In this document: positions 16,820 through 54,500 of the stretch, piece after piece
Layout: the number at the start of each line of letters is the position of its first letter
Position numbering within the stretch: position 1 is the first letter of the stretch
Notes under the pieces: model-generated
What the model saw: the letters and a program-made list of their open reading frames with translations, nothing else
Database searches by the model: none
Told to the model about the DNA's origin: nothing
Position numbers and translations under genes: made by a program
Virus record (IMG/VR): IMGVR_UViG_3300032293_001294
Coordinates: 1-64,000 of that record
DNA from: a virus
Reading direction: 5' to 3' (one strand)
DNA length: 64,000 nt

Positions 16820-17229
16820 TAATTCTTACCGTCCTTTACTTCAACACCTGTCATAATTTCCTGAAGTGTTTTGTCTAAAGCATCTTTTGTTTTTTGTGTA
16901 CTAGCAATAATTGCGTCTTCAATTTGTTTTAAACGAATACGTTCTTTTTTCTCTAATTCTTTTTTTTGTTGTTCACTTAATTCTTCTTGTGCTTCTTCTG
17001 GATTATCAGCTAATGTATTGTGTTGAGCAGCTTCAATAATAGCTTGAACAGGTCCGCTGATGTCTCCAACGTTATCTGCTTCTTTATTTCGGGATCCACG
17101 CACTGAGCGGTTTGTGGAAATCTTCTTCGTCGGTTTTTTCAGAATCTTCATCAAAAACACTGCTTGCAGTGATAACGCTGCTGCTACCAGTATAAGTGAT
17201 ATTGCTATTAAAGCCATCAGAATTTCCAT
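16819..17229 (-). CDS. Membrane-anchored protein overlapping the terminase 3' end
   Basis: AAGGAG RBS inside the terminase gene; N-terminal TM followed by basic residues. Confidence 0.6.
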   Translation of the reverse strand: MEILMALIAISLILVAAALSLQAVFLMKILKKPTKKISTNRSVRGSRNKEADNVGDISGPVQAIIEAAQHNTLADNPEEAQEELSEQQKKELEKKERIRLKQIEDAIIASTQKTKDALDKTLQEIMTGVEVKDGKN

Positions 17230-22496: not shown

Positions 22497-22808
22497 TTAC
22501 TTCTCCTTGTATTTAGCTTGTAGCTCAATATCATTTGGGTAGTCTCGTTGAAGCTCGCTAAGAATAAACAATAGGTTCTCAATTAAGAGTTCACCTAACT
22601 TAGTGTGTGTCATAACCACTAATTCAAAGTCTCCGCGTTTGAGATTGAAACGTACGCTTTCCTGTACGCTTAGTTTTTCAAACGCATTAACTGTCATGGT
22701 TACCGCAGTCGATACTGCAGCACACACTAAGTTTTGGTTAAACGCGTGATCATTAATAACCACACGTGTGTAACCTTGCTTATTCTTTTCGACGACGCTT
22801 TTGATCAA
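22497..22808 (-). CDS. prp: Prp-family ribosomal-processing cysteine protease (DUF464/YsxB)
   Basis: INDHA...NLVCAAVS (His/Cys dyad), ~100 aa, C-terminal LSELQRDYPNDI; AAGGAG RBS before TTG. Confidence 0.85.
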   Translation of the reverse strand: MIKSVVEKNKQGYTRVVINDHAFNQNLVCAAVSTAVTMTVNAFEKLSVQESVRFNLKRGDFELVVMTHTKLGELLIENLLFILSELQRDYPNDIELQAKYKEK

Positions 22809-25445: not shown

Positions 25446-26111
25446 TTATTTTTTAATGATGTCGGCTTCGTATAGGAAGTCGTCTGTATCTTCCGTCACC
25501 CACGCATGTTCTTGTTCGCAGCTATATTCTTGCGTGTTGATCTTCCATGGTTTACCTTCGTACTTTTTCGTCACGAAGCTCGGCTCATACCATCTTAAGA
25601 TCCGGTTGTTCGGCTGTAGTGCAAACTGTCCTGTCGACAACATGATGAAGTGATGCGACTTATGTTCCTGCGGATCTTCTGACAGTGTCATGTCCATCCC
25701 GTTGTTTTCGTTCGCACCCCACTGGACTGTGTACAAGTAAGTCCCTTCGAGTGTCGTTCGGTTCTTCATCCTGACATCGACACTGGCGTTATACACGTAG
25801 TTGAGTGTGACTAAGGAGAAGACTTTAGAGAAGCAGTCCCATAGTTGTAGCGCATGGAACGGATACGTATCCCAGACAGACTCATCTTCTGGTATCTTCC
25901 AAGCCAGCGCCGAGATCGGCAACTTGTCTCGCATCATCCCATACTCAGTCAAGACTTGGAACAAAGCAGCAGACCCTTCGTTGCATCGGATCGAGATCAA
26001 GATCGCCTTGGTGTACTTACCGCGGTGGATTGGATTCTCAGGATCGTCAAAGAAGAACCCGTCGCGTACGAACACTTTCATCGGTGGCAGACTAGTTTCA
26101 ATGTATGGCAT
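25446..26111 (-). CDS. Conserved phage protein of unknown function
   Basis: KLPISAL, LQLWDCF, SEDPQEHKSHH...GQFALQPNNR pattern recalled from many phage genomes. Confidence 0.65.
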   Translation of the reverse strand: MPYIETSLPPMKVFVRDGFFFDDPENPIHRGKYTKAILISIRCNEGSAALFQVLTEYGMMRDKLPISALAWKIPEDESVWDTYPFHALQLWDCFSKVFSLVTLNYVYNASVDVRMKNRTTLEGTYLYTVQWGANENNGMDMTLSEDPQEHKSHHFIMLSTGQFALQPNNRILRWYEPSFVTKKYEGKPWKINTQEYSCEQEHAWVTEDTDDFLYEADIIKK

Positions 26112-26202
26112 GTTTAACTCCTACAGGTATTGTAACACAGGCAACACAGAAATACACAAGAACCTGCACTGTTCGTGCACCTGCTTCTGTTAGCCCAAGC
26201 GG

Positions 26203-26328
26203 TTATTTCTGCTTGATCTCACACACGCCGTCTTGGCAACCCTCTTCGGCCAGCTTATCCCAGTAGGTCTTATCGAACTTGATCGTGACTTTAGGTTGAC
26301 GCTTTTTAGTCTTTGGTTTCTTAATCAT
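26203..26328 (-). CDS. 41-aa basic peptide with CxxxxC tail (not in ORF track)
   Basis: Promoter 26347, GGAGG RBS; MIKKPKTKKRQ...EGCQDGVCEIKQK. Confidence 0.6.
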   Translation of the reverse strand: MIKKPKTKKRQPKVTIKFDKTYWDKLAEEGCQDGVCEIKQK

Positions 26329-26346
26329 AGGTTTACCTCCAGGTTT

Positions 26347-26357
26347 AGTATATCACA
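26347..26357 (-). promoter_or_regulatory. Extended -10 promoter TGTGATATACT, first of the left arm
   Basis: Directly upstream of the GGAGG RBS. Confidence 0.65.
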
Positions 26358-26457
26358 GCTGATGTCTTTACAGGATCGGCTGTGTTTGGGACTTCACGTC
26401 CTACGAAGTGCTAGCTTTAAGGAGCCATCTTTAAAAACAAGGCGCTTGGTAGTGTAG

Positions 26458-26727
26458 GTAGTATATGTGGGCTCCCCCCTTAGAGTATCCTATGGATAGC
26501 TATATGATATATATATATATAAGGAGATAAGGTACTGGTGGTAAATATTTTATATATACTACATATACTACATATACTACTTCTTACGTCTGGGACGGTT
26601 GGATTCGGTTTGTGGTTATGCTACATGTGTACTACCAATTGGAGAATGGGTCACTAATATATATTTATATATATACCCCCAAATTCAGAAACATCCATTT
26701 AAGAACCACCCCCACCCCCCTACCCCC
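26458..26727. repeat. Origin / terminus-like repeat region
   Basis: ATATACTAC x3 at 26554-26580, inverted copy at 26458-26466, TA runs near 26508 and 26658, C tracts 26676-26727. Confidence 0.6.
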
Positions 26728-26754
26728 TATGTAGGCACCGAAACAATAGGTACA

Positions 26755-26879
26755 ACGTAAAAACGTCATACCGCAAGGTATCACCTCCTCTGCGCGCCAG
26801 AGCATAAACAACCCGTAGGGCACAGTAAACTTTCAGTTTACGATCAGTGCATCACAGATGTTGTTGGCTCTATACGCGT
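26755..26879 (+). ncRNA. Candidate structured RNA or ssDNA hairpin cluster
   Basis: Consecutive or nested stems including ATACC-GCAA-GGTAT; strand inferred from the GNRA loop. Confidence 0.4.
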
Positions 26880-27097
26880 TCTCTCTACCTTGATTCATAA
26901 GTTTCTTCGAGTACCTCTATTTGTAAATGCCACATTCTTTAATATTTTCTTCTTAGATCACATGATTATGCTTATCCCACATACAACAGTAACCTCACCG
27001 GCCCCCTCGTCCCCTCGGGACCCGCTACCTCAACGCTTTGAGGCTCACTGCGTTCGCCCACATTGTTAAATCTAGTACAAAAGAAAGGAGATTGTGT

Positions 27098-27427
27098 ATG
27101 GAAAAACCAACCAATTCTCAAGTAAAGGAATACCTTTACACCGAAATCCCCGGAACAAAACGGGTTGTTGCCGCGTCCGAAGTATTCTACCAAAACGGGT
27201 GGGATAGAGAAGCCGGTGCACCTACCGGACTTTTCGACCGCCAAACTACCTTACTTGGTGAAGTGTTAACCCCCGTGGTTGCCGCTTTTATCAAGGACGC
27301 TAATGGTAATTTAGTGGCGAACCCAAAAGTGGGACAACCCGTTAATTCTACCACCCCCGACGCTTACTTGGGCGTCCAACTCAAACGCGAGTTGAACCCT
27401 AAGTTTGTGAAAGCAAGCGACCGGTAG
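27098..27427 (+). CDS. First gene of the early arm, hypothetical; start re-assigned to ATG 27098
   Basis: AAGGAG RBS before MEKPTN; followed by a terminator. Confidence 0.65.
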   Translation: MEKPTNSQVKEYLYTEIPGTKRVVAASEVFYQNGWDREAGAPTGLFDRQTTLLGEVLTPVVAAFIKDANGNLVANPKVGQPVNSTTPDAYLGVQLKRELNPKFVKASDR

Positions 27428-27441
27428 TTAGTTTGTGAATT

Positions 27442-27470
27442 GAAAGCACCTAATCAGTGCTTTCTTTTTC
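27442..27470 (+). terminator. Intrinsic terminator
   Basis: GAAAGCAC-7 nt-GTGCTTTC-TTTTT. Confidence 0.8.
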
Positions 27471-27486
27471 ACTTAAAAACCCAAGA

Positions 27487-27716
27487 CGTAGCATCATACA
27501 ATCTACGACCAGTGTTATAAATTAACACTCAATCAAACATGTGTGGGATGTCCCCACCAATAATCATGGGCGCACCACCCGATACACAACATGTGTATTT
27601 TGGTGCATTAGAGGCAACCAGCGGTAATCAATCCGACTGGTATTCATAAGTCCTCTACCAATGAACTAATAGGGTAACTCCCTTAACAGTTCACCACAAT
27701 ATAGGGTTGTGACCTA
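27487..27716 (+). ncRNA. Candidate structured ncRNA or leader
   Basis: Seven consecutive stem-loops in an ORF-free interval; strand assumed from neighbours. Confidence 0.5.
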
Positions 27717-27747
27717 CCACAATGCTTTTCCATAGGAGGGAAAAACA

Positions 27748-28002
27748 ATGCAAACTTATATTATTGTCGTACATGTCGGAGATGACAAACGTTATGTTCA
27801 ATTAATCGAAGATCGTGAAGATGGAATTGTTCTAAAATTTACAACGAAAATGAACGCAAGTTTATTTTCTGGAGAACAAATTGAAGAATATGTTCCTATG
27901 ATTAAATCACAACAACATGTATTCTTAAATAGTAATACAATGTATATTAATCATAACTTACGTATCTATGCAGAACCATATGCGGAGGTTACATTACAAT
28001 GA
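27748..28002 (+). CDS. Early hypothetical protein
   Basis: AGGAGG RBS. Confidence 0.65.
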   Translation: MQTYIIVVHVGDDKRYVQLIEDREDGIVLKFTTKMNASLFSGEQIEEYVPMIKSQQHVFLNSNTMYINHNLRIYAEPYAEVTLQ

Positions 28003-28440: not shown

Positions 28441-29217
28441 ATGGCACTTAAAGGTAAAGACATTCTAGTCTTCTTGTCAATTAAATACCAAGGAGACTGG
28501 AATAAAATCTATCAAGCAATTAAAAATAAAGAACTTGTCGATGAGCCACAAGTTCAAGAAACTGTTTCTAAAATAGAAAGTAAGATTGTCACCATCATCG
28601 ATGAAGAATACCCTGAATCCTTAAAGAAAATATACAAACCACCGTTTGTTGTTTACTATAAAGGTGATCTAAAGTTGTTGAATAAAAACAATGTAGGTAT
28701 TATCGGTACTAGTAATTTCAGTCATGAAACTGCTAAAAGACTAAATACTTTATTAAGAGAAACCAAACTAAAGTATCCAGGTATTACATATGCCACCATT
28801 AATAATTCTGGTTACGAAGGATTTATTAATAATACATACAGTAACGAATCTGTCTTAGTATTAGATAGAGAAGTTAGATCGTATGATAAAGAAAAATTAA
28901 TCATCTCTGAATACCCAGAAGGTAGTCCAGGTAACAACGAACATCGTCCATGGGCAATGAGAATATTAGCAGGCGTTACAAACGCTTTGCTAATTCCAGA
29001 AGTGAAACGCAAAGAAGACGCACTCATTGGTGCAGGATACGCATTGTATCTAAACAAATCGATTGGTGTATTTTCACAACCAAAAGATAAAGATGATGCA
29101 ACCCATCAGTTAGAAGAAGACGGCGCTAAAATTATTCTTAGTGCAGCAAATGTGTTTGAACTAACACAACTGCTTGCATATAAAAAAGAAGATAGTGTTC
29201 CAAAAGAAATGCAATAA
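28441..29217 (+). CDS. dprA: DprA/Smf-like ssDNA-binding protein, divergent
   Basis: IDEEYPESLKKIYKPPFVVYYKGD, GIIGT, IISEYP; N-terminus LSIKYQGDWNKIYQAI. Confidence 0.8.
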   Translation: MALKGKDILVFLSIKYQGDWNKIYQAIKNKELVDEPQVQETVSKIESKIVTIIDEEYPESLKKIYKPPFVVYYKGDLKLLNKNNVGIIGTSNFSHETAKRLNTLLRETKLKYPGITYATINNSGYEGFINNTYSNESVLVLDREVRSYDKEKLIISEYPEGSPGNNEHRPWAMRILAGVTNALLIPEVKRKEDALIGAGYALYLNKSIGVFSQPKDKDDATHQLEEDGAKIILSAANVFELTQLLAYKKEDSVPKEMQ

Positions 29218-32307: not shown

Positions 32308-32562
32308 ATGGACTACGAAGATTTCTTTCCCATCACAGAAGAACAACTTGTTCGTATACAACAAGATGGAATTAAAGGTATAACTAGATATGAAAATAGT
32401 AGACCTATGCAACGACAAGAATTAAATAATCTAAAATTAATTTACATTGTCGGTGGTATAGATGAAACCATTTACTATCGTGGCTATGTAGATAAGTATG
32501 ATATCTGGGAATCAGATAACAACTTATACCTACGTCATCGTGTCCATGATTCAACGGACTAA
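32308..32562 (+). CDS. Hypothetical protein
   Basis: AAGGAGG RBS. Confidence 0.6.
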   Translation: MDYEDFFPITEEQLVRIQQDGIKGITRYENSRPMQRQELNNLKLIYIVGGIDETIYYRGYVDKYDIWESDNNLYLRHRVHDSTD

Positions 32563-32563
32563 C

Positions 32564-34192
32564 ATGGAACAAGAAAAAAAGAAAAAGCTTGATCCAGTCA
32601 AGCAAGCATACGCAAACGTCTTGCAATTTATTACAAACAATTTTTATACACAACCAGGAGAAGAAATATTTGTTGAGATAGATGATCAATCTAAGGAAAA
32701 TAATTTCTATGATGGTAAACGAATTGTTCTTAGTGGTGAATTGCTAGACGCATTCGGTAAATTAAATCTTCCAAGATTCTTGATTTATTATCACGAACTC
32801 GGACATCACTTGTATAGCAGAGGTATGTTTCAACTTATTGACACATGGCAAAAGCAAACAAGTGGTCCGTTGGAATGGAATACAAACTATCATCACTTAG
32901 TAAACTGGCTTGAAGATTTTTATATCGAAGCTAGATTGAAACGTGAGCATAGTTATCTTACCGATGTAATCAACTGCATCCGTAAGATGCCTCCAGAATA
33001 TGACATCAGTCAAATACAATATGCATTTAATTATTATTATGTGCATGAAGCCCCATCTCCATCGCTAGTATACCTAGATCAAATCGTCTTTAAAAAGTAT
33101 ATCGATAAACTGTTACAGTTAAGAGATAGTAACAAGACAAGATTTGGATATGGTATTCTGACAACGCTTTCTATTAAGAAGAGTAACGAAACTCTATTTG
33201 CTGAAACCATTATTGAATTTTATAATTGGTGTGTAAGCAAAAATATATTTAATGATCAACAAAGAATGCCACCATTACGAAACCCTAATCAACATCTTGA
33301 ACCAGGTAAAGGTCAAACAACTAGTAAACTTTTACAAGATGTAGCAGGTTTATTCGATGACAAGAAACATCTTGATACAGGTAAATCCGTATCATCTGGT
33401 GGTAGTGTCAGTGATCATGCTAAAGAATTAGGTAAAGTTATTATAAGTCAATACAAAGAAGCACCGCATATTAAACAATCAACTGACATGTTGCAAGAAC
33501 ATTTAATTCAAGAAAAAACATTAATCAATAAAGAAATGTTAGACATGTCAATGCGTGCACAAACACAACGTCATACATTGGATGGGTTGTTTACTCCTAA
33601 TTATATTGAGTCAACAATCATACAACCAAGAATAAGTGTTGTGAATTTCTTTAATCCTAATCGACTTGTCGACCAACGTTTGTTCCTTGAAAGAGGACAT
33701 ACGTATATGAACGTCGCAATCTACCGAGATATATCAGGTAGTACATCAGGTACAACGCATACACTGATGAGTAAAGTAGTTGAAAAATTACTGGAACAAA
33801 TACCTGTTGATGTCACGTACTATCTGTATGCAAGTGGTAAAATTAGTATCCTTGAAGTCCCTTATATTAAATGGGATCACGATGCAGTTAAACCTAAAGA
33901 GTATACAAACAATCCTTTGTTTGAACAACTCGGAGGTGGTACAAACAGTGACGCAATTGCTGACGTAATGACACAACAACTTAGTGATAAGTGGTTAAAC
34001 ATCATCGTTACAGATGGTGACTTAAATAGTTTAATGGCAAGAGATAACATCAACGCCTTACTAAAGAACGTGTTTGCTATTGCAGTCAATGGTAATTTAA
34101 CAGACAAAGTAAATGGCATTGAGATCAAAGATGAAACTAAAATCAATGACATAACTGCTGCGATGCAAACGCTTAATTTGTCTGGAACTTAG
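32564..34192 (+). CDS. Metallopeptidase-like (HExxH) plus VWA protein; start re-assigned to ATG 32564
   Basis: YHELGH...NWLEDFYIE; MIDAS DISGS, GGGT, IVTDGD. Confidence 0.8.
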   Translation: MEQEKKKKLDPVKQAYANVLQFITNNFYTQPGEEIFVEIDDQSKENNFYDGKRIVLSGELLDAFGKLNLPRFLIYYHELGHHLYSRGMFQLIDTWQKQTSGPLEWNTNYHHLVNWLEDFYIEARLKREHSYLTDVINCIRKMPPEYDISQIQYAFNYYYVHEAPSPSLVYLDQIVFKKYIDKLLQLRDSNKTRFGYGILTTLSIKKSNETLFAETIIEFYNWCVSKNIFNDQQRMPPLRNPNQHLEPGKGQTTSKLLQDVAGLFDDKKHLDTGKSVSSGGSVSDHAKELGKVIISQYKEAPHIKQSTDMLQEHLIQEKTLINKEMLDMSMRAQTQRHTLDGLFTPNYIESTIIQPRISVVNFFNPNRLVDQRLFLERGHTYMNVAIYRDISGSTSGTTHTLMSKVVEKLLEQIPVDVTYYLYASGKISILEVPYIKWDHDAVKPKEYTNNPLFEQLGGGTNSDAIADVMTQQLSDKWLNIIVTDGDLNSLMARDNINALLKNVFAIAVNGNLTDKVNGIEIKDETKINDITAAMQTLNLSGT

Positions 34193-36999: not shown

Positions 37000-38985
37000 A
37001 TGATTAAATATCTGATCTATGATACTGAGACTACAGGTCTCAATATTATTTCAGACAAACCATTTATGTTTCAATATGGATTAGTCGATCACAATCTACA
37101 GCTTGTATCAAGCGATTGGTTTCACGTGAAAGACAAAGCCAAGATGGATGTGTTTAAACAACACTTACTGTCCATCAATACAATCGTCGGTCATAACATT
37201 AAGTTTGACCTACACATGGCAATCAATGCTGGGTTCGATAAAGAAATCTTTATGAATAAAAACTTTATTGATACATCAGTACTATCACGATTAGTGATAG
37301 ACCATGATACACAAACTGATAAAACATTTTCTGCCGGTCTTAAAACACTTGGTGTTAGATACTTAGGTATCGATTCCAATACAGAAGAACGTGCATTGAA
37401 AATGGAACTAAGCCGACTTGTATCAGAACATAAACAAAAGATGAAAGACTATTTCGTAGCGCAAGGTGTGTGGGATAATAAGCTAACACAAACAAATCAA
37501 ACCAAGTTAATTAATGACATTTATCTTAACTGGAATAAAGTGTTTCACTTACACTCACAATTCACACAACCACGTAAAGCATTCTTACAATCAAATCCTG
37601 AACCTACCTATGAACAATGTTCAAACGTTGTCACATATGGTATGACAGATATTAAATTGACCCATGGTTTACTTAAACTATGGTATCCAAAAGCAGTCAC
37701 ACTACAACAAGTTGATACGCTTAAACGGATTAGTAATGCGACCTATCCATTAGTCATTATGGAACGTCAAGGTCTAGCCGTCGATGTCCAACAAGTTCTT
37801 AAAGATAGAGCCAAGATTGTCGACGAACTTAGTAAGACAACCATCGTTGATCCAAGAACCAATACAACATTATCGATTGGTCAACATGCTAAACTTAAAG
37901 AACTATACGAATATGAATCAGGTGAATCGTTAGAAAGTTCAGATAAAGAAACACGCTCTGAGATCGAAGACGTATCTCCAGCGGCTAAAGCAGCAAACTA
38001 TATTGCTAAATTAGATAAGTATCTTAATACTTATGTAAGATCTATACTGGATAAACTAACCTTAGTTGGTAAAGAATACCGTGTCTTTACTCAATATAAC
38101 CTAGCAGGTACAATTACAGGACGCTTATCATCAGACTTCCAACAGTTCCCTAAGGATGCAATTAAACTAGCAGATGGAACTGAAGTCAATATACGTAGCT
38201 GGTTCGTTGTACCAAAGCAAGATAAGTACATGTTCTACTTTGACTATAGTCAAATGGAACTACGTCTTCAATGCGAATGGACTAACATTGTCAATGGTCA
38301 ACCAGACATCAACATGGCACGAGCATTCACGCCATACAAATGTATACAAAAAGATGGTAAGTATTTCTTAGAAGAAGATCCAACTAAAGAGTGGAAGCCA
38401 ACAGACTTGCATGCACTCACAGCTAAAAACGCTTTCCCAAACATAGATGAAACACACCCAGATTGGAAACAATATAGAAACCTTGGTAAACGTACCAACT
38501 TTGCAGTTAACTATGGTGCAGCCGCACCTAAAATACAACAAGCTTTAAAGGTAGATTTTCCTACCGCACAAGCTTTAGTACAAGGTTACCGTAAAGCATT
38601 TGCAGGTGTCGTCGCGTTTGGTAAGTGGATTAGCAACCGAGTGTATGTCACAGACAATATACCTAACCTATTACTGCGTAGATATTATTCACGTAATAAA
38701 CATCAGTTACAAAACTGGTTAGTACAAGGTAGTGGTGCTGACATTCTATTACTAAAGCTTAGAGAAATATTTGAGTATATTAAAAACAAACCACACTGGA
38801 AGTTCATGATCACAGTTCACGACGAACTAGGATTTGTATGCTCAGACATACCACAAGAACAGCTTAAGCGTGAAGTTAAAGATATACAAAACCTAATGAC
38901 ACATAGCATGTCTGCTGTGGATATCATTAGTGATGTAGAATATACAACGACCAAGTGGTCAGAAAAGGATGAATGGACAGAATGA
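37000..38985 (+). CDS. polA: Family A DNA polymerase with 3'-5' exonuclease
   Basis: YDTETTG, GHNIKFD, TGRLSS, FDYSQMELR, RNLGKRTNFAVNYG, TVHDEL. Confidence 0.95.
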   Translation: MIKYLIYDTETTGLNIISDKPFMFQYGLVDHNLQLVSSDWFHVKDKAKMDVFKQHLLSINTIVGHNIKFDLHMAINAGFDKEIFMNKNFIDTSVLSRLVIDHDTQTDKTFSAGLKTLGVRYLGIDSNTEERALKMELSRLVSEHKQKMKDYFVAQGVWDNKLTQTNQTKLINDIYLNWNKVFHLHSQFTQPRKAFLQSNPEPTYEQCSNVVTYGMTDIKLTHGLLKLWYPKAVTLQQVDTLKRISNATYPLVIMERQGLAVDVQQVLKDRAKIVDELSKTTIVDPRTNTTLSIGQHAKLKELYEYESGESLESSDKETRSEIEDVSPAAKAANYIAKLDKYLNTYVRSILDKLTLVGKEYRVFTQYNLAGTITGRLSSDFQQFPKDAIKLADGTEVNIRSWFVVPKQDKYMFYFDYSQMELRLQCEWTNIVNGQPDINMARAFTPYKCIQKDGKYFLEEDPTKEWKPTDLHALTAKNAFPNIDETHPDWKQYRNLGKRTNFAVNYGAAAPKIQQALKVDFPTAQALVQGYRKAFAGVVAFGKWISNRVYVTDNIPNLLLRRYYSRNKHQLQNWLVQGSGADILLLKLREIFEYIKNKPHWKFMITVHDELGFVCSDIPQEQLKREVKDIQNLMTHSMSAVDIISDVEYTTTKWSEKDEWTE

Positions 38986-42594: not shown

Positions 42595-45500
42595 TATTTC
42601 AATATTGTAGCTTGTGATTGTCTGTACCGAACGTATTGTCTCCATTGAATATTCTTAACTAAACGATATGGATTAGTAGTAGGTCTACGCATTTTACCAT
42701 ACTTAGTAAACCAATCCTTGTATATATTTTCATACTTAGCCCAACGTCCATTACGTCCATAACGATAACGACGTGGTGTATATTTTTTAAACTGACTTAT
42801 ATCATACCCAATACCAGATATAGTTCTAAATAAAGTTGCTTGTCTTGTATCTAATATACGTGCTAATGATGGATCATTGCGTGCAATATCTTCTCTAAGA
42901 TTTGTACCCAACACCATGTCAGATAAACCAGTAGCAGTATTTACAAATCTTGTACCAAACCCAACAACAGCTAATTGAGCAAACCCTTTTAAAGCATCAC
43001 CATCTTTAAATAAACTTTGTATACCACGTAATAAAGGAGATGCTCTTCTAGTAAGTTCTATGTCAGTATTATAAATAAGATTCATGACATCAAATGCCCC
43101 GTTACCTATTCTTAATCCCCAATCTTTAGCAAATGGAATCCATCCTTGACGGATTTGATATTTAGTAAAGTCATCATATTCTTTAGTTTCTTCATCTCTA
43201 TATTGTGCATACCAACCATCAATAAAGTCAGATAAAAATCTCCAATACTTAGGACTCATTAATCTATCAATCCAGTTATTAATAGAACGTACAGGGAAAG
43301 ATAAGAATGGAATATCAGCAAGCAATCTAGTTTCTAACGGAGAACGCATACCATAATTAAACCAGTGATTTAAAGAATCTATTGTAGCTTGATCAAATGT
43401 TTTGTTATACAACATTAAGTTATAAAAGAAGTTAGTAATACGTGCAGCGTTTTCTATCTTAGTATTAGAATCAGTATACCAAGCAACAGGATTAAACTTA
43501 TTTAACCAACCACCTTTAACTTTATCTAATTGTTTTACAATTTGTTTATAAGTCATATTAGATTTATATGAATCTTTATAACCTCTATATTGTTCAAAGA
43601 ATTTAGGAAGTAATTCAAAACGGTCTTTACGTAAGTAGTCACTAAGTGCTTCTGTATTCATGAACGCACTTAATTGTTTTAATAAAGGTTTTTTAAATTC
43701 ATACTCATCAACTTTTTCTGCAATAGTTTTATGTCTTACAATTTGTCCCTGATTATTTTTAGCATCAGTTCTTAAACCAGCAACCCAAGTATTATTAATA
43801 ATTCGGTTATCATACATTTCAATGTATTCACCGAACTCTGTTTTAGATGCAAAAATAACAGATTGTTTTAACAAGTCTAAATACTTATCAATATTATCAG
43901 CGTTAGCTTCTTTTAATTTTCTAAATAAATTGATAGCTACTTTACGTCTTGTTTCAATATGTCTATTATTATTTTTAAGTGTGTCAGATATTTTAATATA
44001 GTTGAGTAAGAATTCTTTAATTAAATCTAATTTATTATTAATTACATTAGAATCTTTAACTGGTAATTTACTTGCTTTTAAAACATCTTCATAATGTAAA
44101 CCAATATTAATGATACTAATACTTAATTCATCGCTATATTTTTCATACAACTTCATAAGTTCTAATGAGTTTAATGTACTATTAACATATCTATTAGACT
44201 CAATTAACTTAGGAATGATAATAGAGTTACTAAACATTTGATTAACACTATCAAAAATATTACGTGCTATGAAAGCGGCGTTTAATTTAGAAAGATTTTT
44301 TGACATGATTTGTAATGAGAAGAAAAACTTATCTACTTTATTAGGCAATTGATAAGGAGAGTACACATCATTCATCGTGTCCATCCAGTCATTTAAATCT
44401 ACAAAACCAATGATATCACCTTTTAAATTTTGATCATAGATTTCTTGGAAGTCTTCAAAGTTATCTACAATGACTTCTTTTAAAGTAAAGTTAATATTTT
44501 TATTTGTAGCTAAAATTAATTTAGGATCAATACGGTTATACACTTTATTATCAAATACAACTTTACCACCAGCTCGTTGCCATGCTTCAAGGTTTTCTAA
44601 AGCAGAAATCTTTTTACCATTTACAACTGTATCTTTAAATAATAAGTCATTATAAATAGAGTTATCAATTAAACCAAACTTTTGACCTACTTTTTCTATA
44701 ATGTTTAAATCTTTTTTCTTATTAGTTGGGAATAAAACATCATCATAACGTGGATCATATTTTCTAATGCGTTCTGTAACAAGTTTAAATCTACCTTCAT
44801 CAGGATCAGCGTGTCTAATCTGCACAAGTTTAAACTGTTGTTGCTTTGTTGTGTATAGTTCGTAAGCATTTTTTAAACTTCTAATTCTATTATTAGAACT
44901 ACTGTTATCAACCATGTTCTTTAATAAAGTAATGCGATTATACATACTAAGTAATGAACGTTCTTTATATGCTTTTAAATCTTGCTCAGTTAAAACTTTA
45001 GGTTTCTTAACGGTAGTATCACCCATACCTTGACCACCTAAACCATCATCATCAGGAGTTCTTAATAAAAGAATTAAACCACCGATGTTATCAACCACAG
45101 CTTTCTTTAAAAGTTTGCTTCTAATATCTGCTTCTTTAGTATTAAGTTGAGTTATTTCTTCCTTAATAGTTTCTACTGGAGACTTACTTTGCTCAAGTAA
45201 TTTAACGTAGTTGTCTAATGGATCAATGCTTTCTTCAATTTCTTTAATTTCATCTTGGAATAATGAAATTAATTCTTGAATCTTATCAGATTTTAACTTG
45301 TTATTTGTAGCTTTGTTGTTTAATTCAGACAATCTACTTATGTTATTTCTTGTTAATGTTTCTTCTAATTTAGATTTAATTTCTTTAGATTCAATAATCG
45401 TTTCAGCATCTGTTTTATATTTTCTATTTTTAGTATCAGAATTTATTTTTTTAATAGTTGCTTCATATTCTTTTTTAGTTTCTAAAAGAACTTCGATTTG

Positions 45501-48500
45501 TGTTCTAAAACTGTTAATTAAATCTTTATATTGTTTAACTGCACCATTAAATGTAGCGTAGTTTAAATTATCTTGCAGCTCTTCACTTACTTTATTCATA
45601 GCTTCTCTACTAATTTCTTCAATAGGTGCTTGTAAATGTTCCATTGTAGGATCATCGTTTATAGCAAGTTTTAATTGAAGATTATTTTCATCAACAGATT
45701 TATTGATTTCATCTTTAGTTGGGAAATCTTCTCTGGTTAATAATTTTTTATTACCAAATTCATCTGTTCTATAATACCCTTCTTCAAAGTTATTAATGTT
45801 ACTGAAGAAATTAAATATAATCTTTTCTTCATTTTCATATTTACTATTAAAGGTTTTTTGGAAATCAGCATCAGCATATCTAAAGTTAAATATTTTAATG
45901 TTAACAATGTTATTAATAACATTATCTTTTGATGTGGTAAATTTTTCTTCCCCAATATAATTTCTTCTTACAACTGCTGTAACAGAGTCAATGTAATCAA
46001 CAAAGTCTACAAGTTTATAGAATGGAATATCATGTGTATCAAAGAATTGAATAGCTTTTTCTAAATCTTTTAACTTTAAATTCTTTGGATTATCTAAACC
46101 TTTGTTTAATTCTTTTACATTGTTTATTAATTCTACAATAAGTGTGTCAGGGACAAACATATTAAATAAGAATACTTTTGCTTTTTGTTTTATTACTTTA
46201 TCTAAATCTGATTTAGCATCTGCAACTTTTGTATAAGAATCTGAAATTAAAACTTGTCTTCCTGGATTTTCTTCAAACCATTTTTTATTAACTTCACTCT
46301 TAGATGTACGTTTTAATGTATTATCAAAACGTTCATTCATTTCTCTGTCTAGATTAATAGCCATACCAAACAAACTATCATTGTCATTACTACCAATAAT
46401 AACTTTTCTTCTTGCAGATTTTTCAATTAGTTTTTTCGTCTTATCTAATATACGTTTGGAAGCATCTGCTGCTTTTACTTCTTGACCATAGTGTTTAGGC
46501 AAGTCAATAGGTTCTTGAATTAAGAATGACATTCTATTTTGTGCAAGTCTTTCAATAATTTGTTGATTAAAGTATTCATTTAATAATGTTTCTGGGAGTA
46601 CTTCAGATTTAGAACTTAAGTAATTTTTCATAACATTAACATCTACGAAGTAACGCATAGCAATTTCTTTTATAAAGTTTAAGTTTAATTTTTTCTTTGT
46701 TAAATCAGATAGATCTTTAGAATTAAAAATACTTAAATACTCTTCAATAACAGGGTCGTTTTGTTTTGATGTTGATTTAAGCCAATCTTTAACTTCTTGC
46801 ACTTCTAAAGTTTTATCAGTGTCTACTAAACTTAATGCTTTTAAATAAAAGTCTTTTAATTTTTTAAGTTCTTCTGCACCAGTTTTAACTTTATTTTTAA
46901 CAATTAATATATCATCTATGATTTCATTAATATCATCTTTGTAAATATCATAGAATTCTTTTTCAAAATTAGTAGCTATTCTAGATCTTAATACATCCGA
47001 AAACCAGTAAGCATTTATAAAGTAATTATAAAATTTATATTTAGAATCAAAATTTTCTTGAACAGCATCTTTTAATACAACTTCTCCTTCTACTTCTCTT
47101 GTGTTCTCTTCGTTTTGTAAAAGCTTTTGATACTCTTGATTGGATTCATTAACCCATGAGTCGTATTCATTTTTACTTAATGAATTAGATTTTAAAGCCA
47201 AAGCTTGTAATAAAGAGTCAAATGTAATTGCGCCATCTGTATCAATAGCACCTATTTGTTCCCAGAAATAACCATACTTTAACTTGTTAATTGTTTTATA
47301 CGTTGATAAGTGCGAAGAACTAAATTGACTCTTACGTTCAGAACCTACTCCTGGAATCGTTGTTTTACCTGCACGAACACGTTCAGTTGTTGTAATGTGT
47401 GTTTCATAATAAGAAAGGATATTAACTAAATATTCGTATACTTTAGAATATTCAGTTGTGCCAATTAATTCTTTGTTATTTAAAATATCACGTTCTTCTT
47501 TATCTAAAACCTTACTGTATATTTTAATTAAAGTATCAGGAATTTCAATGTTAGGAACTTGTTTAACAATCTTAGTTTCAACTTTTTCTTTTGTTTTAAA
47601 TAAATCTCCAATAGTTTTTTCAATCAAAGGAAGATACTTAACATCTTCAAGACTACTAAATCTAGAACCAATACCAGCAATCTTGCCTTGTAATAAAGGA
47701 GCATTATTAATCTTAGACCAAGTAAGTTTACCAGTAGATACAAACCATTGGTTTTGTTTAGGATCAAAAACATACACAGGTTTACCTAACTCTTGTGACA
47801 TAGCTACGCCCCAACCAGTACCACCATCTACTGTGCCATCATTTTTTAAATACCCGGCAGCAACAATTGTGTCTGCATCATTAATAATAAAGTGATTTCT
47901 TATTTGTAATAACTTTGTTATAGGATTAGTTGGAACATTTTTGTTTAATAATGCAGCAGCTTTAACTACAGCTTTTTCTGCTGTTTTAACTTCAACATCG
48001 CTCATATCATTAACAGACATACTAAGAACAAAATTAGGTTGATCTTTAGGTTTGTCAACATCTCTGGCTACGTATACATTTGTCTTAATATTATTTTCAC
48101 GTGCAAACTTTTGGAACAAACTATCAGAACCTGGAGCATTGCCACTACTTAATTGTACAAATGGTTGACCTTTAACTTTAACGTCAACTTTTTTAATGTC
48201 ATTTTCAGGTTTAACTTTCCCGTATATAACCTTTTTATTTTTAATTAAATCTTCAATACTATATAGTTTATCTATAAAGTCTTTGTTATTATTATAATAT
48301 TTTAATAGCAGATCTTGATTTTCATAATCTTTAAGACTTGTAATAACACCACCAAAGTTTTCACCTTTGTTTTTTAATTTAATATGAGCATTAACAAATG
48401 TTTTTAATAAGCTTGCAAAATTTGGATTGTTCTTTTCTTGATCTAAAGATTTAATTTCTTTACGATTAGTTTCAAAATAATCCATCAATTGATTTAATAG

Positions 48501-51500
48501 ATTGGCTTCTTGAATAAAGTCATATCTTTCAATAGTCAAATACTCTTGATTGCTTCTGATAACTTTAGGAATAGCATACTTACCTACAATATTTCTTTCA
48601 AATTTATAGGTTATTCTTTGTGGATATTTTAAATCATGGACAATATTGTAGTCTACAAAACCAGGCATAATACTTTGTACCAGTTTTTCAATACTATCTT
48701 TAGGACTAATAGTGTAATCTGGAATGTCGTTTTCTAAACTTCCAAAAAACTCTGTATCTGATTTTTCTAAATAACTTACAAGATTAACTACCTTACCTTG
48801 ATCCTTAATTTGTTTTTCATCAAGCGTATAGTAGTTATAATCTGTAGCTAAAAGCGGACGTAAAGGTGCGTCTTTACCTTCAATAGCATCTAAACCTACT
48901 ATAGCCATACCAAAAGCGTCACCGTCAGTATCAGCACCCATCATTGGATAACCGAATCCATTAACATAAGTTGCTGCTGACTTACTAAAACCAATAACTT
49001 TATACACAGGAACAGCGTTATAGTCTTGTTGTGGCGAACGGCTGCTTAATAAGTAAGCATATGTTTGATAGAACTTGTAATTAGTTCTTAATAACTTCTT
49101 AAGTTTTTCTTTATAATTAATGACAGGTCCTACAGCGTCCCAAAGTTTTTTGTTATCAGCTTCTAATAACCCGCGAGAATTTAAGAAATCTTCACGATCT
49201 TTACTATCTGTTAAGGTTAGTAAATGTTCTACATAATAGTTTATCTTTTCACTATCTGTAAGTTCTTCTACACCTATAATATTCTTTTGTTCTTTATTTC
49301 TATTTTGTAAAACACTCCAACCACTTGCAGGTATTACAATTTCACCGACATCTAGTGTTCTATCCAAAGCAAACTGCGCACGTATACCGCTTAATGTTTT
49401 AAACGACGCTTTATAGAATGCACTTTCCTTACCACTATAAAGTTTATCTGGAATATTAGCATCGGTATTCTTAACTAAAATATCTATTTCACTTTCGTAA
49501 TACTTCTTCATAGCAGGATCAACACTATTATTTAACATGCTTAAAAGTCTTACATACTTAATACCATTGGTATAAATAAGATTGTGGATAAGTTTATCCG
49601 CATATAACTTTTCTAAGTTATCTATTAATCCTTGTTCTTTTTTCTTAGTTATATTATCTTTAGTAACATTTAAAGTATTTAAAATATAATCTGAAAATCC
49701 TAGTATTCTTGGACGTGCTAGATTCTTAGCATTTGTTTGATCAAATGCAAATACTCTATTAAAATCATTTAAACCAATTTTGTTAAGTATTAATTGTAAT
49801 GCAGCAGGACCTATGGTTTGTCCAGTATCAACGTTGCTGTTATCATCTAATATATTAAATACAAACTTACCAATTGTCTTTGTATTAGATTCAGTATATT
49901 GAGCTTGTGGGTTATTCTCATGGTCAGCCATAACGTAGACGTTTCCTCTGACAAAAGAACCAGTCTTTAAATTAATGGTAGCGTAACGTCGTTCTAATAA
50001 TTTATATGCGTCTAATTTTGCAGTATTAATATCTTGATAGGTTAATGGTTTATTTTGTAGACGAGACTTAGCAATAACAATAGGAACTTTAATTGGTGGT
50101 AGTTTATCAATATCAGGATTGTTTTTAACATCATCAATTAAAACCCATTGATAGATATCATTTAAATCAAAACGAGCGTTTCCTTTTGCGTCATAAAAAC
50201 TAGTTAAAGATTTAATTTGATCTTTATATTTAAATAAAAGATTACTTAATCCTTCTAATTCATCTTGTGTTTTATAATATTTATTAATTAAAATACCATC
50301 TTCATTAATGTTCTTTTTAAACGTTGCGTTTAAATACTCTTTGATTTCAGGAATATCAAATACTTCTTTTATTCTAGACGGTACAACTGCTTTACCATCT
50401 TGGTATGTTTCATTGTTTAAATAACTTGTTATATAGTTATATAACATTTCTACATACATACCTGATGTTCCACGTTTTGTTACAGACTCTGCGTTTGATA
50501 AGAAGAAAGCACCATATGTTTTATGTAGATCTTGTATAGGATAGATAGTACCTTTAAAACCGTGGTGTGTACCTAACCAAATTTTAGCTGACAATTCATA
50601 GCCAAATTCTTTTAAGAAATCAGCATCAACACCAATTGTATCAAGACCAACACGTGGATCATTAACCATTACAATAGGTAAAACTGTACCAAATTGATGT
50701 AGTTCAGCATCTGCTTTATAGTTTTGGTACATTTCAGCACTCATAACGTTAGGCATAAATAATTGTGAATATTTATTACCAAACTTTCTAATAAATTTAT
50801 TTCTTAAATCAGGACTTAATGGATTTTTATTTATAAACGTTTCCATTAATTTTTTACCTGGGGCAACTTTATCAGGTATTTCTTTATACATACGATTAAG
50901 TAAACCAATAGTAGTATACGTAGCCATTAAATGCTTAGCATGTAATTGTGTACGAATAGGGTTATCATTCATCGCAAATGGGAAGTTAAATGGAAGTCTT
51001 GGTTTTAGTTTATACACAACAGCTGTACTTGCTTCTGAGTTTAATTCTAAAGAAATATTATTTTCATCCAACCATTTATGATCAATATGTTCTAAATTAT
51101 AGTCATAACTATACTCATCACTAATTTGGTTGACTAAAGAACCACGTTCAAGGGCATTGTATTTAGAAGTAATTCTATTATAAATACCATTATAAACTTC
51201 TTTTAAATTAATATTCTTAATACCTTTATCATTAAGTAAGTTAATTTGATTAATAACAGCTTTTCTAATTATCTTGCTGATATTAGTAATCTTTAAATAT
51301 CTATCACTTGCACCAAACTGTTCGTACGGGAATACTTCGCCTTCATTCTTTATTAAATAATTTAATAAAATATCAATTGCGTTTTTACTAGAATCAATTA
51401 CTTCACCTTTTTCATTTATATCAGGTATTAAATATTCTTTAGGTATATTATCTGGTCCTAATACGTACTCAGGTTTTCCACCTTTAGGTTGGAAGTAAAA

Positions 51501-54500
51501 CTGACTTTGCATATTTTTTAAAGTGTCAATTGCTTGGCTATCTAAGTTACCTTCGTCATCTAATTTAAAAACTTTAGTCATTAATTTTTCATCAGGTCTA
51601 TTCATGTATTCATTATCTTTTGTAGTATAAACATACTTTAATTCTAGTTTTAAAGTCTTATTTATGTTATCAAATGTAGCTGTATTAATTCTGTTATAAA
51701 CTTCATCGTATACAAAATACTTTGTAATAGGACCAAAAGGCCTTGAAAAGATTCTATTTGGTACTTGTCTTAATACACTAATGTCGTCACCTTTTCTAGG
51801 TTCTTCATATTCTATTTCAATATTTAAATTCTTTTTACGTGGAGATTTGTCGATTTCTTTTTTATCAATACGAGTAGAAGCCAACGTTTGGTATTGTTCA
51901 AGAGACATTCTATCGCTAGAAGGAACTCCTTTTATAATTTCTGTAATGGTTCTTTCCATTGCATTATCTACGTTTGTTTCTTGTACACCAACTTCTTTTA
52001 GAATATTTGTATAGTACACACTTAAAACATTTTCGTTTATTTTTCCAATGTCATTAGCTTTATAATTAGTTAAAAAATTAATACTGTTTTGTAAGGATTC
52101 TAATTTTTGATTAATAATACTGACAAAGATATCTTTATCATAGAAGAAAGTTCTACTGTCGTATAAATCGTCTAAGGTATACTTAGAGAAGTTTTCAATA
52201 GATCTAATATCATTTATGTTTTTAAATAATCTAAACAACGTTGTTTGATTACGATCAAAGAAGTTTTTATTATTAGAATCATTCGTTAACGATAACAAAT
52301 ATTTATTAATATCTTGTAAGTTTACTTTAATTTCTTGTTTGTTACTATCTAGATAATACCAATAAGACTGTTCTTTATTATATTTATATTCAAATATTTC
52401 TATGTTTTTTCCAAGACCTAGCGCTTTATACTTAACAAGGTTATCATTTACAATCTTAAAGTTATTTTCTAATTCTTTTAAATAAATATCTAAATCAGAT
52501 TTTTGTTGGTTTTTAAGTACAGTTAATTCTTTATTTAAGATATCACGTACAGCTTCATCATCGATAGAAGTTCTGCCTTTAAAGATTAAATCAATTTGAT
52601 TTTGTAGTGCAGCTATTGCAGACTTTTGCTTAGTCGGATCTTTAATAACATCGATAACTGATTCATCAAATACTTTTAACATTAGACTTTCTTGTTTGCT
52701 TAGATCTTTTTCTTGTCTTATAAAACCAAGTAAGTTATTTAAATTACTTATCAAATCATTTAATTTCTTATTGGTTTGGTCTATTCTATTTTCCATAACC
52801 CCTAGATTAGATAACCCAATAACATTATTTAAAACAACTTTTGGATTATTCAAAGCAATCTTAATACTAGATAAACTAGTGCTATTATCTTCTGCAATTT
52901 TTCTTGCAGCTGAAAGCATTTCTTCTAAGATAACATTTCTTTCTTTAGTTAATCCTACTTGGCTAATTACTTGTGTATCATTTGAAGGATCACCATTTAA
53001 TAAAGTTTCAATTTCAGATTTTAGTTCGTTTATACGTTTAACTTTTTCTGCTTTTCTTTCTTTAGTAGCTTGAATAATTTCATCTTTGGTTTTACCTTTT
53101 TCAAGCATAGCAATTAAATCATTTTTAGCAGCTTTAGCTAATTCAATTGTTTTTAATTTTTTACCGTAGTCTATTTCAATATCTTTTAACTCTAGGTCTT
53201 TACCATACGTAGCGTATACATGCTTAGTAATTTCTTTCTTAAGCGTGGTATTAGCATCATCTTTATTAAAAGTAACAAGGTTATTTGGACCTCCAACAAT
53301 TAAACGATCAAAAGTATTTGGTGCGTTTTCTACAAATTTAGTAACAGCATCTAAAATTATCTTATGAATTTGTACTGTTTGTTGATCTGTACTATAACTG
53401 TTTAAAAACTTTATAGCCAAAGTATTAATAACTTTTTCTTTTATTTTTGGGTCTCTGTTGATAACGTATTTTTCTAATTCATTTGAAACATTACCCAATT
53501 CACCATCATTAAAGTCTAAAAGTTTCTTTTTTAATTCATCATTAAAAATATAATCAGTATCATACAGTGCTTCTTTAGTAAATTCATTTAGTTCAAGCTT
53601 CCACTTAGCTCTAATAGCCTGCTCAATAAGTTCACCAACTGCATCCAGCTCTTGTGGTTTAGCTTCTAAAGAATTTTTATTAGCAAGAATTTTGTTTTCT
53701 AATCTACTAATAATTAATTCAAGTTGTTTTTTGTATTCTTTATTACGTTCAATATCATTGAGTTTAGGATCAATGTTTTTTAATACATTATTAATAGAGT
53801 TATCTTCTTTAATACTACGATAGTATTCGTTAACAACAAGCTTCTTACCAACTTGACTAATAAAGTTTTGTATAATACCAAAGTCAAACTTATTACCGTT
53901 GTGTGCGACAATCTTAAAGTTATTTTCTACACCAATAATTTGGATAAATGCACGTATAAAGTTGTCGTTGTTTTGTTTAGTACTAACAGTTTCAATTAAT
54001 TTATTAAGTTTTTCTCTAGCTTTTAATTCAAGTTGTTCGTCGTTTAAAATTAAACCATCATTTTCCCATTGTTTTTTCCAAACTTCATTCTTTTGGAAAC
54101 GATAAAATTCTTCAATTTCTTTTGTATAACTACCGTCTTCATTAATAGCGTTATAAAATAACGAGCTGTTAATGTATGCGTTATGAATTTGCAACTCACC
54201 ATTCTTATCGATATATAACATACTCATTTGATATGGAAATTCTTGTCCATTTTGTTTGTATGTTTCAATATCAATAACAGCAAACTCATCGGTAAGTCCT
54301 TTTTCTTTAAGAACATTCTTTTGATGAATATAGTTTAAAGCAGTAGGCATAATATCAACTAAAGAATCGTGTAAAGCAAATTCACCTTCTGTATTAACCT
54401 TATTAATTAAAGATTCTTTGGTGTATCCTTTTGTTTTACTAGTAATAATTTCGGCAACTTTTTCTAATACTTCTTGGTTATTTTTTGTATCTTTTAATTG

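Follow-up and report, generated by a model that had tools for sequence, protein, structure and literature searches.

A probable single-chain two-barrel RNA polymerase core inside an 8,228-residue protein of a lake-water phage

Experiments have demonstrated two-barrel RNA polymerases (RNAPs) that are delivered with the virion in just two phage groups, the crAss-like phages and the Thermus phage P23-45. gp66 of the crAss-like phage phi14:2 is most similar to QDE-1, and the catalytic loop of the crAss enzymes reads DFD[I/V]D, with Ile or Val at the place where all other RNAPs have Gly (10.1101/2020.03.07.982082). The virion RNAP of the Thermus phage, gp96, is fused to a tape measure of 5,002 amino acids (aa) (10.1101/2022.12.01.518664). 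Here we describe a giant gene in the IMG/VR virus record IMGVR_UViG_3300032293_001294 (75,709 bp), the first 64,000 bases of which constitute the analysed stretch (the window). We consider it likely that the encoded protein contains the catalytic core of a DNA-dependent RNAP of the single-chain two-barrel (cell-type) kind, and that this protein is a virion-delivered one (Table 1). Virion two-barrel RNAPs concealed in giant phage proteins are themselves a known class. The protein family is undescribed: we found no paper on it, nor on a polymerase core in any phage protein as large as this one. A first-pass annotation of the window had supposed an undescribed podophage lineage with such a protein.

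The two barrels were identified by fold, because fold comparisons and not sequence searches gave matches to RNAPs. Two AlphaFold models were used. Model 1 (m6dc6d35225d1) covers 961 residues, was built from an alignment of nine sequences and has a mean predicted local distance difference test (pLDDT) score of 67.6. Model 2 (mea8ae6aa65a1; 413 residues, 16 sequences, mean pLDDT 73.8) contains the second barrel alone, which was folded separately because it was poorly modelled in model 1. For the beta-like region of model 1 (residues 55-411), the best nine of 48,161 representative chains were all second-largest RNAP subunits, with Z scores of 8.4-10.8. They comprise the subunits of African swine fever virus (8q3b_B, 10.8), Pol I (4c2m_B, 10.3), vaccinia virus (6rfl_B, 9.9), the phages AR9 (7s00_C, 9.3) and phiKZ (7ogp_C, 8.6) and bacterial beta (6j9e_C, 8.4), together with those of Pol IV, plastid PEP and Pol III. 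The matches ranked below these nine were unrelated helical bundles with Z scores of at most 6.8. A Foldseek search with model 1 also placed domains of the double-psi beta-barrel (DPBB) type and RNAP beta subunits first, if weakly, and the region contains an S...RG..G...E motif in addition to the motifs listed in Table 1. The helical connector that follows matches generic helical bundles only; by analogy, its position would correspond to that of the connector in single-chain RNAPs.

The second barrel gave the stronger comparison. The best 13 chains matched by model 2 were all largest RNAP subunits, aligned at their catalytic barrel over 104-130 residues with Z scores of 9.5-12.2 and rmsd values (root-mean-square deviations) of 2.2-3.9 Å (comparison pdb_via_wide). 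Lower ranks were taken by generic DPBBs (Z about 8), P23-45 gp96 (7.6), QDE-1 (6.7) and RDR2 (6.5). When model 2 was compared with Foldseek's best 1,000 chains (pdb_via), 632 of them reached a Z score of at least 8, and the best 50 were without exception RNAP largest subunits (Z 12.1-12.5, rmsd about 2.1-3.5 Å). Residues 344-497 of Escherichia coli beta' (8txo_J), a range that includes NADFDGD, aligned to model 2, and counted back from the end of each aligned range the DTDGD loop lies at most two residues from the position of NADFDGD. The invariant DxDGD loop sits at the site of the catalytic Mg2+ in cellular enzymes. In BFVD, a library of viral structures, the named matches were LEF-9 and largest RNAP subunits from giant viruses, poxviruses and jumbo phages, 14 of them at E <= 1e-3. 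The double-psi barrels on which the first-pass annotation had staked its proposal are predicted in the expected number and order, beta-like before beta'-like, each with RNAP-specific matches.

All six motifs that had been singled out from the sequence are found where they had been placed, and they share one reading frame on the minus strand. When 1.84 billion protein representatives were searched exhaustively with HMMER, only 13 proteins were returned, several of them 6,661-7,998 residues long; M[MI]G[AG]DxDGD is kept by each of those that cover the site. A scan of IMG/VR with the single protein as query gave no relatives, and alignment-based scans recovered six IMG/VR contigs and nine JGI or GenBank contigs. 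About 20 related low-GC phage contigs have the same arrangement and the same giant frame. Every relative that is long enough has the motif about 1,800-1,900 residues from the C-terminus of an open frame that extends over at least 5,300 codons. Across the family alignment (22-69% identity), the invariant motifs are D...KxWxGxxxGxKG and SxxxRGxxG for the first part; for the second they are RxQ, RxPxQD and YxMxGxDxDGD. K173 and K183 of KxWLGxxxGFKG (model numbering) are unchanged across the relatives, as are D174, D176, G177 and D178 (numbering of the second model) in 16 sequences. As far as sequence comparison goes, these invariants are those expected for a two-barrel polymerase. Since the key residues are invariant in relatives and both regions fold as RNAP-like barrels, the motifs go beyond chance resemblance. 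The loop reads D[N/T]DGD throughout the family, with Thr restricted to this phage and its nearest relative (69% identical) and Asn in the others. It had been taken for a variant catalytic loop, a view that we do not share: it keeps the canonical Gly of cellular RNAPs, and it is the crAss enzymes that deviate. A six-frame scan of the genome, made in search of a second RNAP, found no other DxDGD motif, and an alignment-based scan of 185,579 species genomes found no relative of the giant protein and hence neither a prophage nor a clue to the host.

The giant gene is real. Within the window its frame is open from 42594 to 63998; past the window edge it extends as far as an ATG at record position 67280. 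The complete gene (record 42594-67280) thus encodes 8,228 aa and makes up about one third of the genome. The first-pass annotation was right about a giant protein, for which it had given more than 7,130 aa; the length became 8,228 aa when the record was read past the window edge. Contigs from three other studies span the whole examined stretch of the gene, and the frame is kept across independent lake and freshwater runs, which show substitutions and no gaps that would break it. An 8,388-bp contig covering 44312-52699 differs by 112 substitutions and no gaps, and a 6,829-bp contig covering 48204-55032 by 271 substitutions and no gaps. Apparent joints in metagenome contigs with sides of 20-25 letters were treated as noise.

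Two properties of the protein bear on its whereabouts. Segments of hydrophobic, membrane-like character are confined to the vicinity of the N-terminus (residues 87-105, 327-358 and 414-434), and there is not a single cysteine in the 8,228 aa. Five homologues of 6,661-7,998 residues each are likewise free of cysteine. Taken overall, the remaining proteins of the phage contain 3.8 cysteines per 1,000 residues. By our own tally, the average is about 1 per 1,000 for the nine non-terminase proteins encoded in the two structural-gene clusters, and the two other frames of the giant gene hold 84 and 451 Cys codons. Firmicutes reportedly keep cysteine out of exported proteins. The absence of cysteine from the giant and its homologues would be a simple, testable mark of a protein that travels unfolded or outside the cytoplasm. 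Ahead of the ATG (record 67281-67305) lies TGCTATAAT, an extended -10 element whose end is 11 nt from the start codon, and no Shine-Dalgarno (SD) motif is present in that interval. With the extended -10 element only 11 nt from the ATG and no SD motif, a nearly leaderless mRNA is possible for the largest gene of the phage, and the giant may be translated from such a message. The suggestion that the protein is processed found no backing. Pfam detected no protease domain inside the giant and a regular-expression search no Prp-type cleavage motif, so that processing by Prp is unsupported.

The genomic surroundings place the phage apart from the crAss-like phages. A plus-strand block at 27.7-42.3 kb is a replication operon encoding DprA, a clamp-loader-like ATPase, primase, SSB, a DnaB-type helicase, a family A DNA polymerase (PolA), an exonuclease and a Sak4-like annealing protein, and a minus-strand block at 0.3-26 kb contains Prp, the large terminase (TerL), the portal and tail-like proteins. 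In tblastn searches of 50,697 phage records (INPHARED), the best matches were the Paenibacillus larvae podophages API480 and SV21 for both TerL (32% identity, 2e-64) and the portal (23%, 2e-30), and no crAss-like record matched either protein. SV21 and API480 were also the best matches of PolA in the phage collection (29%, 4e-62), with records from the host Bacteroides intestinalis ranked below them. Beyond the window, the major capsid protein (MCP) of API480 matches a 666-aa ORF (record 67760-69760) and API480_9 matches the next ORF (67354-67692). The API480 MCP itself has 313 aa; the capsid homologue is twice as long, with an insertion of about 170 residues separating its two matching parts. 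Since TerL, portal, PolA and MCP are all nearest to API480/SV21, the phage does not nest within Crassvirales, in agreement with the first-pass annotation. Judged by these comparisons, it is not crAss-like, and its nearest cultured relatives, though distant, are Paenibacillus podophages. The giant gene immediately follows the API480_9 homologue and is the last gene of the structural cluster, which is the expected place for a head-internal or ejection protein.

Taken together, these data make it probable that the phage delivers a transcription enzyme of its own to the host. We infer virion delivery of the giant from the position of its gene after the capsid gene, the membrane-like segments at its N-terminus and the complete lack of cysteine. 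In the mechanism that we propose, the giant would be made late from the structural gene cluster, packed into the capsid and expelled through the short tail along with the DNA. The three hydrophobic segments might help it to cross or to anchor in the host membrane, and the polymerase would then transcribe the early phage genes before any phage protein exists, a course of events shown for N4, phi14:2 gp66 and P23-45 gp96. Two further parts of the giant, one resembling DEDD-type exonucleases and one resembling DprA/SLOG domains, could serve as accessory nucleic-acid modules of the delivered protein. Sigma-70-type promoters are not in excess in the control region of 1.6 kb that precedes the early operon. 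This and the lack of a second DxDGD motif are consistent with virion delivery, if far from proof of it.

Several observations weigh against this interpretation. The AlphaFold models on which the identification depends were built from alignments of little depth (9 and 16 sequences), and the catalytic loop has a pLDDT below 50 in model 1. Neither a bridge helix nor a trigger loop was identified, and a foreign domain of 180 aa occupies the place where the polymerase should continue. Sequence searches were silent throughout. In the whole giant, Pfam and PHROGs detected no polymerase family, the sole match being a DprA-like PHROG; phmmer against all PDB sequences and a nine-sequence family profile against the same sequences returned nothing relevant; tblastn with the RNAP region found no match among the phage records; and hhalign of a 14-sequence profile with E. 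coli rpoB and rpoC gave probabilities of at most 0.15. Furthermore, Bacillota are not prominent in lake water. As to the missing elements, the stretch after the catalytic barrel is helical in the models. Downstream of the DprA-like insertion, a motif RVRxxKxGxxxxGxxRKxQ...SS is kept in the homologues that cover this stretch and is, by position alone, a candidate for the bridge-helix region. Other polymerase types did not emerge either. A YonO-type match to the RNAP region was found neither by tblastn at E <= 1e-3 in the phage collection nor in PHROGs, and Pfam and PHROGs detected no N4/T7 polymerase family in the giant. The weak Foldseek matches to the T7-type human mitochondrial RNA polymerase (7pzr, E 0.63; 7a8p, 0.76; 6erp, 1.1) had probabilities of at most 0.08.

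If the polymerase is active, it could also work without being packaged, either as an enzyme of the P23-45 gp64 or jumbo-phage nvRNAP type or as an RNA-dependent one of the QDE-1 type, with the host RNAP starting the infection. Fold and motifs are silent on the location of the protein, and the extended -10 element before the start codon would let the host RNAP transcribe the gene. However, such an enzyme would have no obvious reason to be encoded at the end of the structural cluster after the capsid gene, to carry membrane-like segments at its N-terminus or to lack cysteine in the manner of the other virion-module proteins of the phage. Its giant size is hard to account for in a soluble intracellular enzyme, and the early operon does not show the excess of sigma-70-type promoters. 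We therefore regard a non-virion enzyme as unlikely. The three Asp, the Gly, RxPxQD and both Lys of the basic loop are invariant at only 22-45% identity, and invariant catalytic residues despite such low identity are a signature of selection on catalysis. This argues against the notion that the barrels are a catalytically dead relic, kept as a scaffold or DNA clamp in a structural ejection or channel protein that stands in for a tape measure or ejectosome. A relic of this sort would agree with the lack of a recognisable enzyme domain in most of the 8,228 residues (Pfam, PHROGs), with the failure to find a bridge helix and trigger loop and with the low confidence of model 1 at the catalytic loop. 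On balance, it seems improbable to us.

The phage could, finally, be a divergent member of Crassvirales in Bacteroidota, for example in freshwater Flavobacteria, and the giant a gp66 orthologue fused to the other giant proteins of the crAss transcription block. The low GC content (26-37%) of a genome from lake water would suit this idea, and crAss-like phages do encode several giant proteins in one block, a single-chain RNAP among them (PMC7886860). We nevertheless give it hardly any credence. TerL and portal point to Paenibacillus phages with no crAss-like record among the 50,697; the loop reads DxDGD instead of DFD[I/V]D; QDE-1 reaches a Z score of 6.7, compared with 12 for the multisubunit enzymes; SD-like motifs precede 62% of the ORFs; and Prp is encoded. 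The canonical loop and barrels that are nearer to multisubunit beta/beta' than to QDE-1 probably place the family outside that of gp66. The likeness to gp66 that had been proposed holds for the single-chain architecture, and gp66 is probably not the closest relative.

Table 1 Features of the window and of the giant protein. Positions refer to the window; residue numbers refer to the full-length giant protein unless a model is named.
Feature	Position	Strand	Remarks
Giant ORF	42594-64000	minus	C-terminal 7,134 codons and stop inside the window
Beta-like region with first double-psi barrel (DPBB-B)	49869-50939	minus	model 1 residues 55-411; protein ~5,450-5,800
LDTIGVD	50625-50645	minus	beta-like; residue 5546
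AKIWLGTHHGFKGT	50547-50588	minus	beta-like basic loop
Basic loop KIWLGTHHGFKG	50547-50588	minus	residue 5566; invariant in relatives
GNVYVMADH	49920-49946	minus	residue 5779
Helical connector between barrels	49404-49772	minus	helical in model 1 (residues 444-566)
Beta'-like catalytic double-psi barrel (DPBB-A)	48813-49406	minus	model 2 residues 16-213; protein ~5,960-6,160
SGIRAQFALDRTLDVGEIVIP (SGIRAQ...; GxRxQ...GE)	49329-49391	minus	beta'-like; residue 5964
LLSSRSPQQ (RSPQQD)	49026-49052	minus	beta'-like; SRSPQQ at residue 6079
GADTDGD, metal-binding loop	48918-48938	minus	beta'-like; residue 6115
DprA/SLOG-like Rossmann-type domain	47646-48191	minus	~180 aa; PHROG 768, E 1.6e-6
RVRxxKxGxxxxGxxRKxQ...SS	47325-47384	minus	residues 6633-6652; downstream of DprA-like insertion
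DEDD-type 3'-5' exonuclease-like domain	53700-54300	minus	~1,100 residues upstream of polymerase
C-terminal module with basic tail	42597-44696	minus	~700 residues; best-conserved part of the giant
Portal	15020-16819	minus	PHROGs
Large terminase (TerL)	17084-18949	minus	PHROGs
Prp cysteine protease	22497-22808	minus	PF04327, E 1.2e-12, 48.3 bits (cut-off 27)
dprA	28441-29217	plus	replication operon; PF02481, 1e-24
Family A DNA polymerase (PolA)	37000-38985	plus	phrog_17, 1.4e-68

Apart from the polymerase core, which is preceded by about 5,400 and followed by about 2,100 residues, further modules of the giant are of note. The DprA/SLOG-like insertion lies right after the polymerase barrels and is absent from all homologues, being found in this phage alone. 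It does not duplicate the phage's own dprA gene. In the DEDD-type exonuclease-like domain, the motifs VIDIETYK (54255-54278) and AHNGNKFD (53883-53906) were located, and their DIE and NGNKFD cores are conserved in homologues; an ExoIII motif was not located in this domain. PF10108 was matched in two of eight family members below threshold (E 0.022 and 0.061), and in the Atlas the closest clusters with a name are RNase_T ones (score 0.87), a lead only. The C-terminal module is 47-92% identical to fragments on short contigs, and a homologue search with the C-terminal 700 aa returned only unnamed or 'hypothetical protein' fragments of the same giant family. In the Atlas embedding it lies close to viral hypothetical proteins (0.96-0.97), with 11 matches in LPD38 clusters. 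LPD38 (PF18857) was accordingly tried as an assignment, for which Pfam gave nothing at E <= 1 in nine members. The module is a candidate for packaging or anchoring. BLASTP of a 1,631-aa API480 protein against the C-terminus of the giant and against a 1,495-aa protein of the window gave no significant match.

The window contains further genes and signals of possible interest. A 436-aa protein of the structural module (9415-10725) has BspA-type leucine-rich repeats (PF13306, 3.9e-9) and is a candidate receptor-binding protein. The N-terminus of the protein encoded at 3521-4516 reads MIELKLNWFGGE, and neither Pfam nor PHROGs gave a match to a protein of 564 aa that is encoded midway in the replication operon (32498-34192). 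Between the window's divergent operons lies a control region (26100-27760) whose GC content (0.43) is the highest in the window. Its features include runs of (TA)n, TACATATAC in tandem repeats near 26560-26585, an ORF that is small and GC-rich (27100-27427) and a terminator (27442-27464) followed by several short hairpins, which could be signals for the phage polymerase.

With regard to the host, strong SD usage and the presence of Prp and DprA, all claimed from the sequence at the outset, were confirmed. An SD-like motif precedes 40 of 64 crude ORFs (62%), compared with 3.7% of random windows, and Pfam recognised both proteins (Table 1). Prp is typical of Bacillota and a few other phyla. SD use, Prp and the affinities to Paenibacillus phages argue against Bacteroidota and for an SD-reliant host, which is possibly of Bacillota type. 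The same annotation had included Mollicutes. TGA is the stop codon of 16 genes, which makes a host reading TGA as Trp (code 4) unlikely. Matching DNA was found in freshwater and lake-water metagenomes of several studies, with no RNA data set among the sequencing runs listed, and the GC content along the genome is 26-37%.

It may be speculated that the family represents a third independent lineage of single-chain two-barrel RNAPs beside the gp66/QDE-1 and P23-45 types, with barrels nearer to cellular beta/beta' than to those of the other single-chain enzymes, that is embedded in a cysteine-free protein of about 950 kDa and combines an early-infection apparatus in one chain. We put this forward tentatively, as a possibility that we would not favour at present. 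If true, one polypeptide would unite a membrane-crossing device, formed by the N-terminal hydrophobic segments, an exonuclease and a transcription enzyme and would be expelled whole or in pieces. It would also add a data point on the joining or splitting of beta and beta' and would bear on the upper size limit for proteins passing a phage tail. The family is relevant to three questions: the frequency with which the cellular polymerase core has been captured or retained by phages, the way in which a protein close to 1 MDa is packaged and expelled, and the contribution of the fused exonuclease-like and SLOG-like modules.

Among known systems, the N4 virion RNAP (about 3,500 aa; Schitoviridae) shares the biology proposed here, that is, a polymerase carried in the capsid of a podophage for the transcription of early genes (PMC13434306). 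Its fold is of the T7-like single-subunit, right-hand type, in contrast, and is unrelated to the two-barrel fold of the giant. The mixture of modules in the giant fits the phage-type polyvalent proteins, which are large, multidomain and predicted to be delivered with the DNA (Iyer et al. 2017, PMC5512222), whereas none of their hub domains (MuF, MPTase, SNF2, methylase) was found in it. The best structural matches are the multisubunit beta/beta' enzymes, including the split ones of AR9 (7s00) and phiKZ (7ogp), with Z scores of 8.4-12.5 and the loops in the expected places. In those enzymes the barrels reside in separate chains; the giant has both in one chain, with no recognisable alpha or omega and no clamp or lineage domains identified.

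That virion-delivered two-barrel RNAPs occur outside Bacteroidota, as proposed for this phage, has a precedent in P23-45 gp96 (PDB 8h2m/8h2n), a single-chain two-barrel RNAP in a giant virion protein of a phage with a non-Bacteroidota host. Compared with model 2, gp96 (8h2m_A) has a Z score of 7.6 over 97 residues, below that of cellular beta', and an identity of 23-24%, the highest among the matches. tblastn against the phage records detected no sequence similarity between gp96 and the RNAP region. The gp96 polymerase is N-terminal in the tape measure of a long-tailed phage, whereas the predicted core lies here at residues ~5,450-6,160 of a protein whose phage has podophage relatives. Pfam detected no tape-measure domain in the giant, which does not have the N-terminal architecture of P23-45. 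gp66 (PDB 6VR4) was not itself among the chains in the fold-comparison lists. It is, like the giant, a single chain with the order barrel B, connector, barrel A, is encoded among giant proteins and shows no similarity to cellular RNAPs in ordinary sequence searches. gp66 is packaged in the virion, as is proposed for the giant. The two differ in size (2,180 versus 8,228 aa) and in the loop (DFDID versus DTDGD/DNDGD), and the giant has no PHROG match to the polymerase and accompanies structural genes unrelated to Crassvirales. The family would form a third group beside crAss-like phages and P23-45, without sequence similarity to either, and it stands out from both by the 8,228-residue size, the cellular-type barrels with DxDGD, the lineage related to Bacillota podophages and the complete lack of cysteine.

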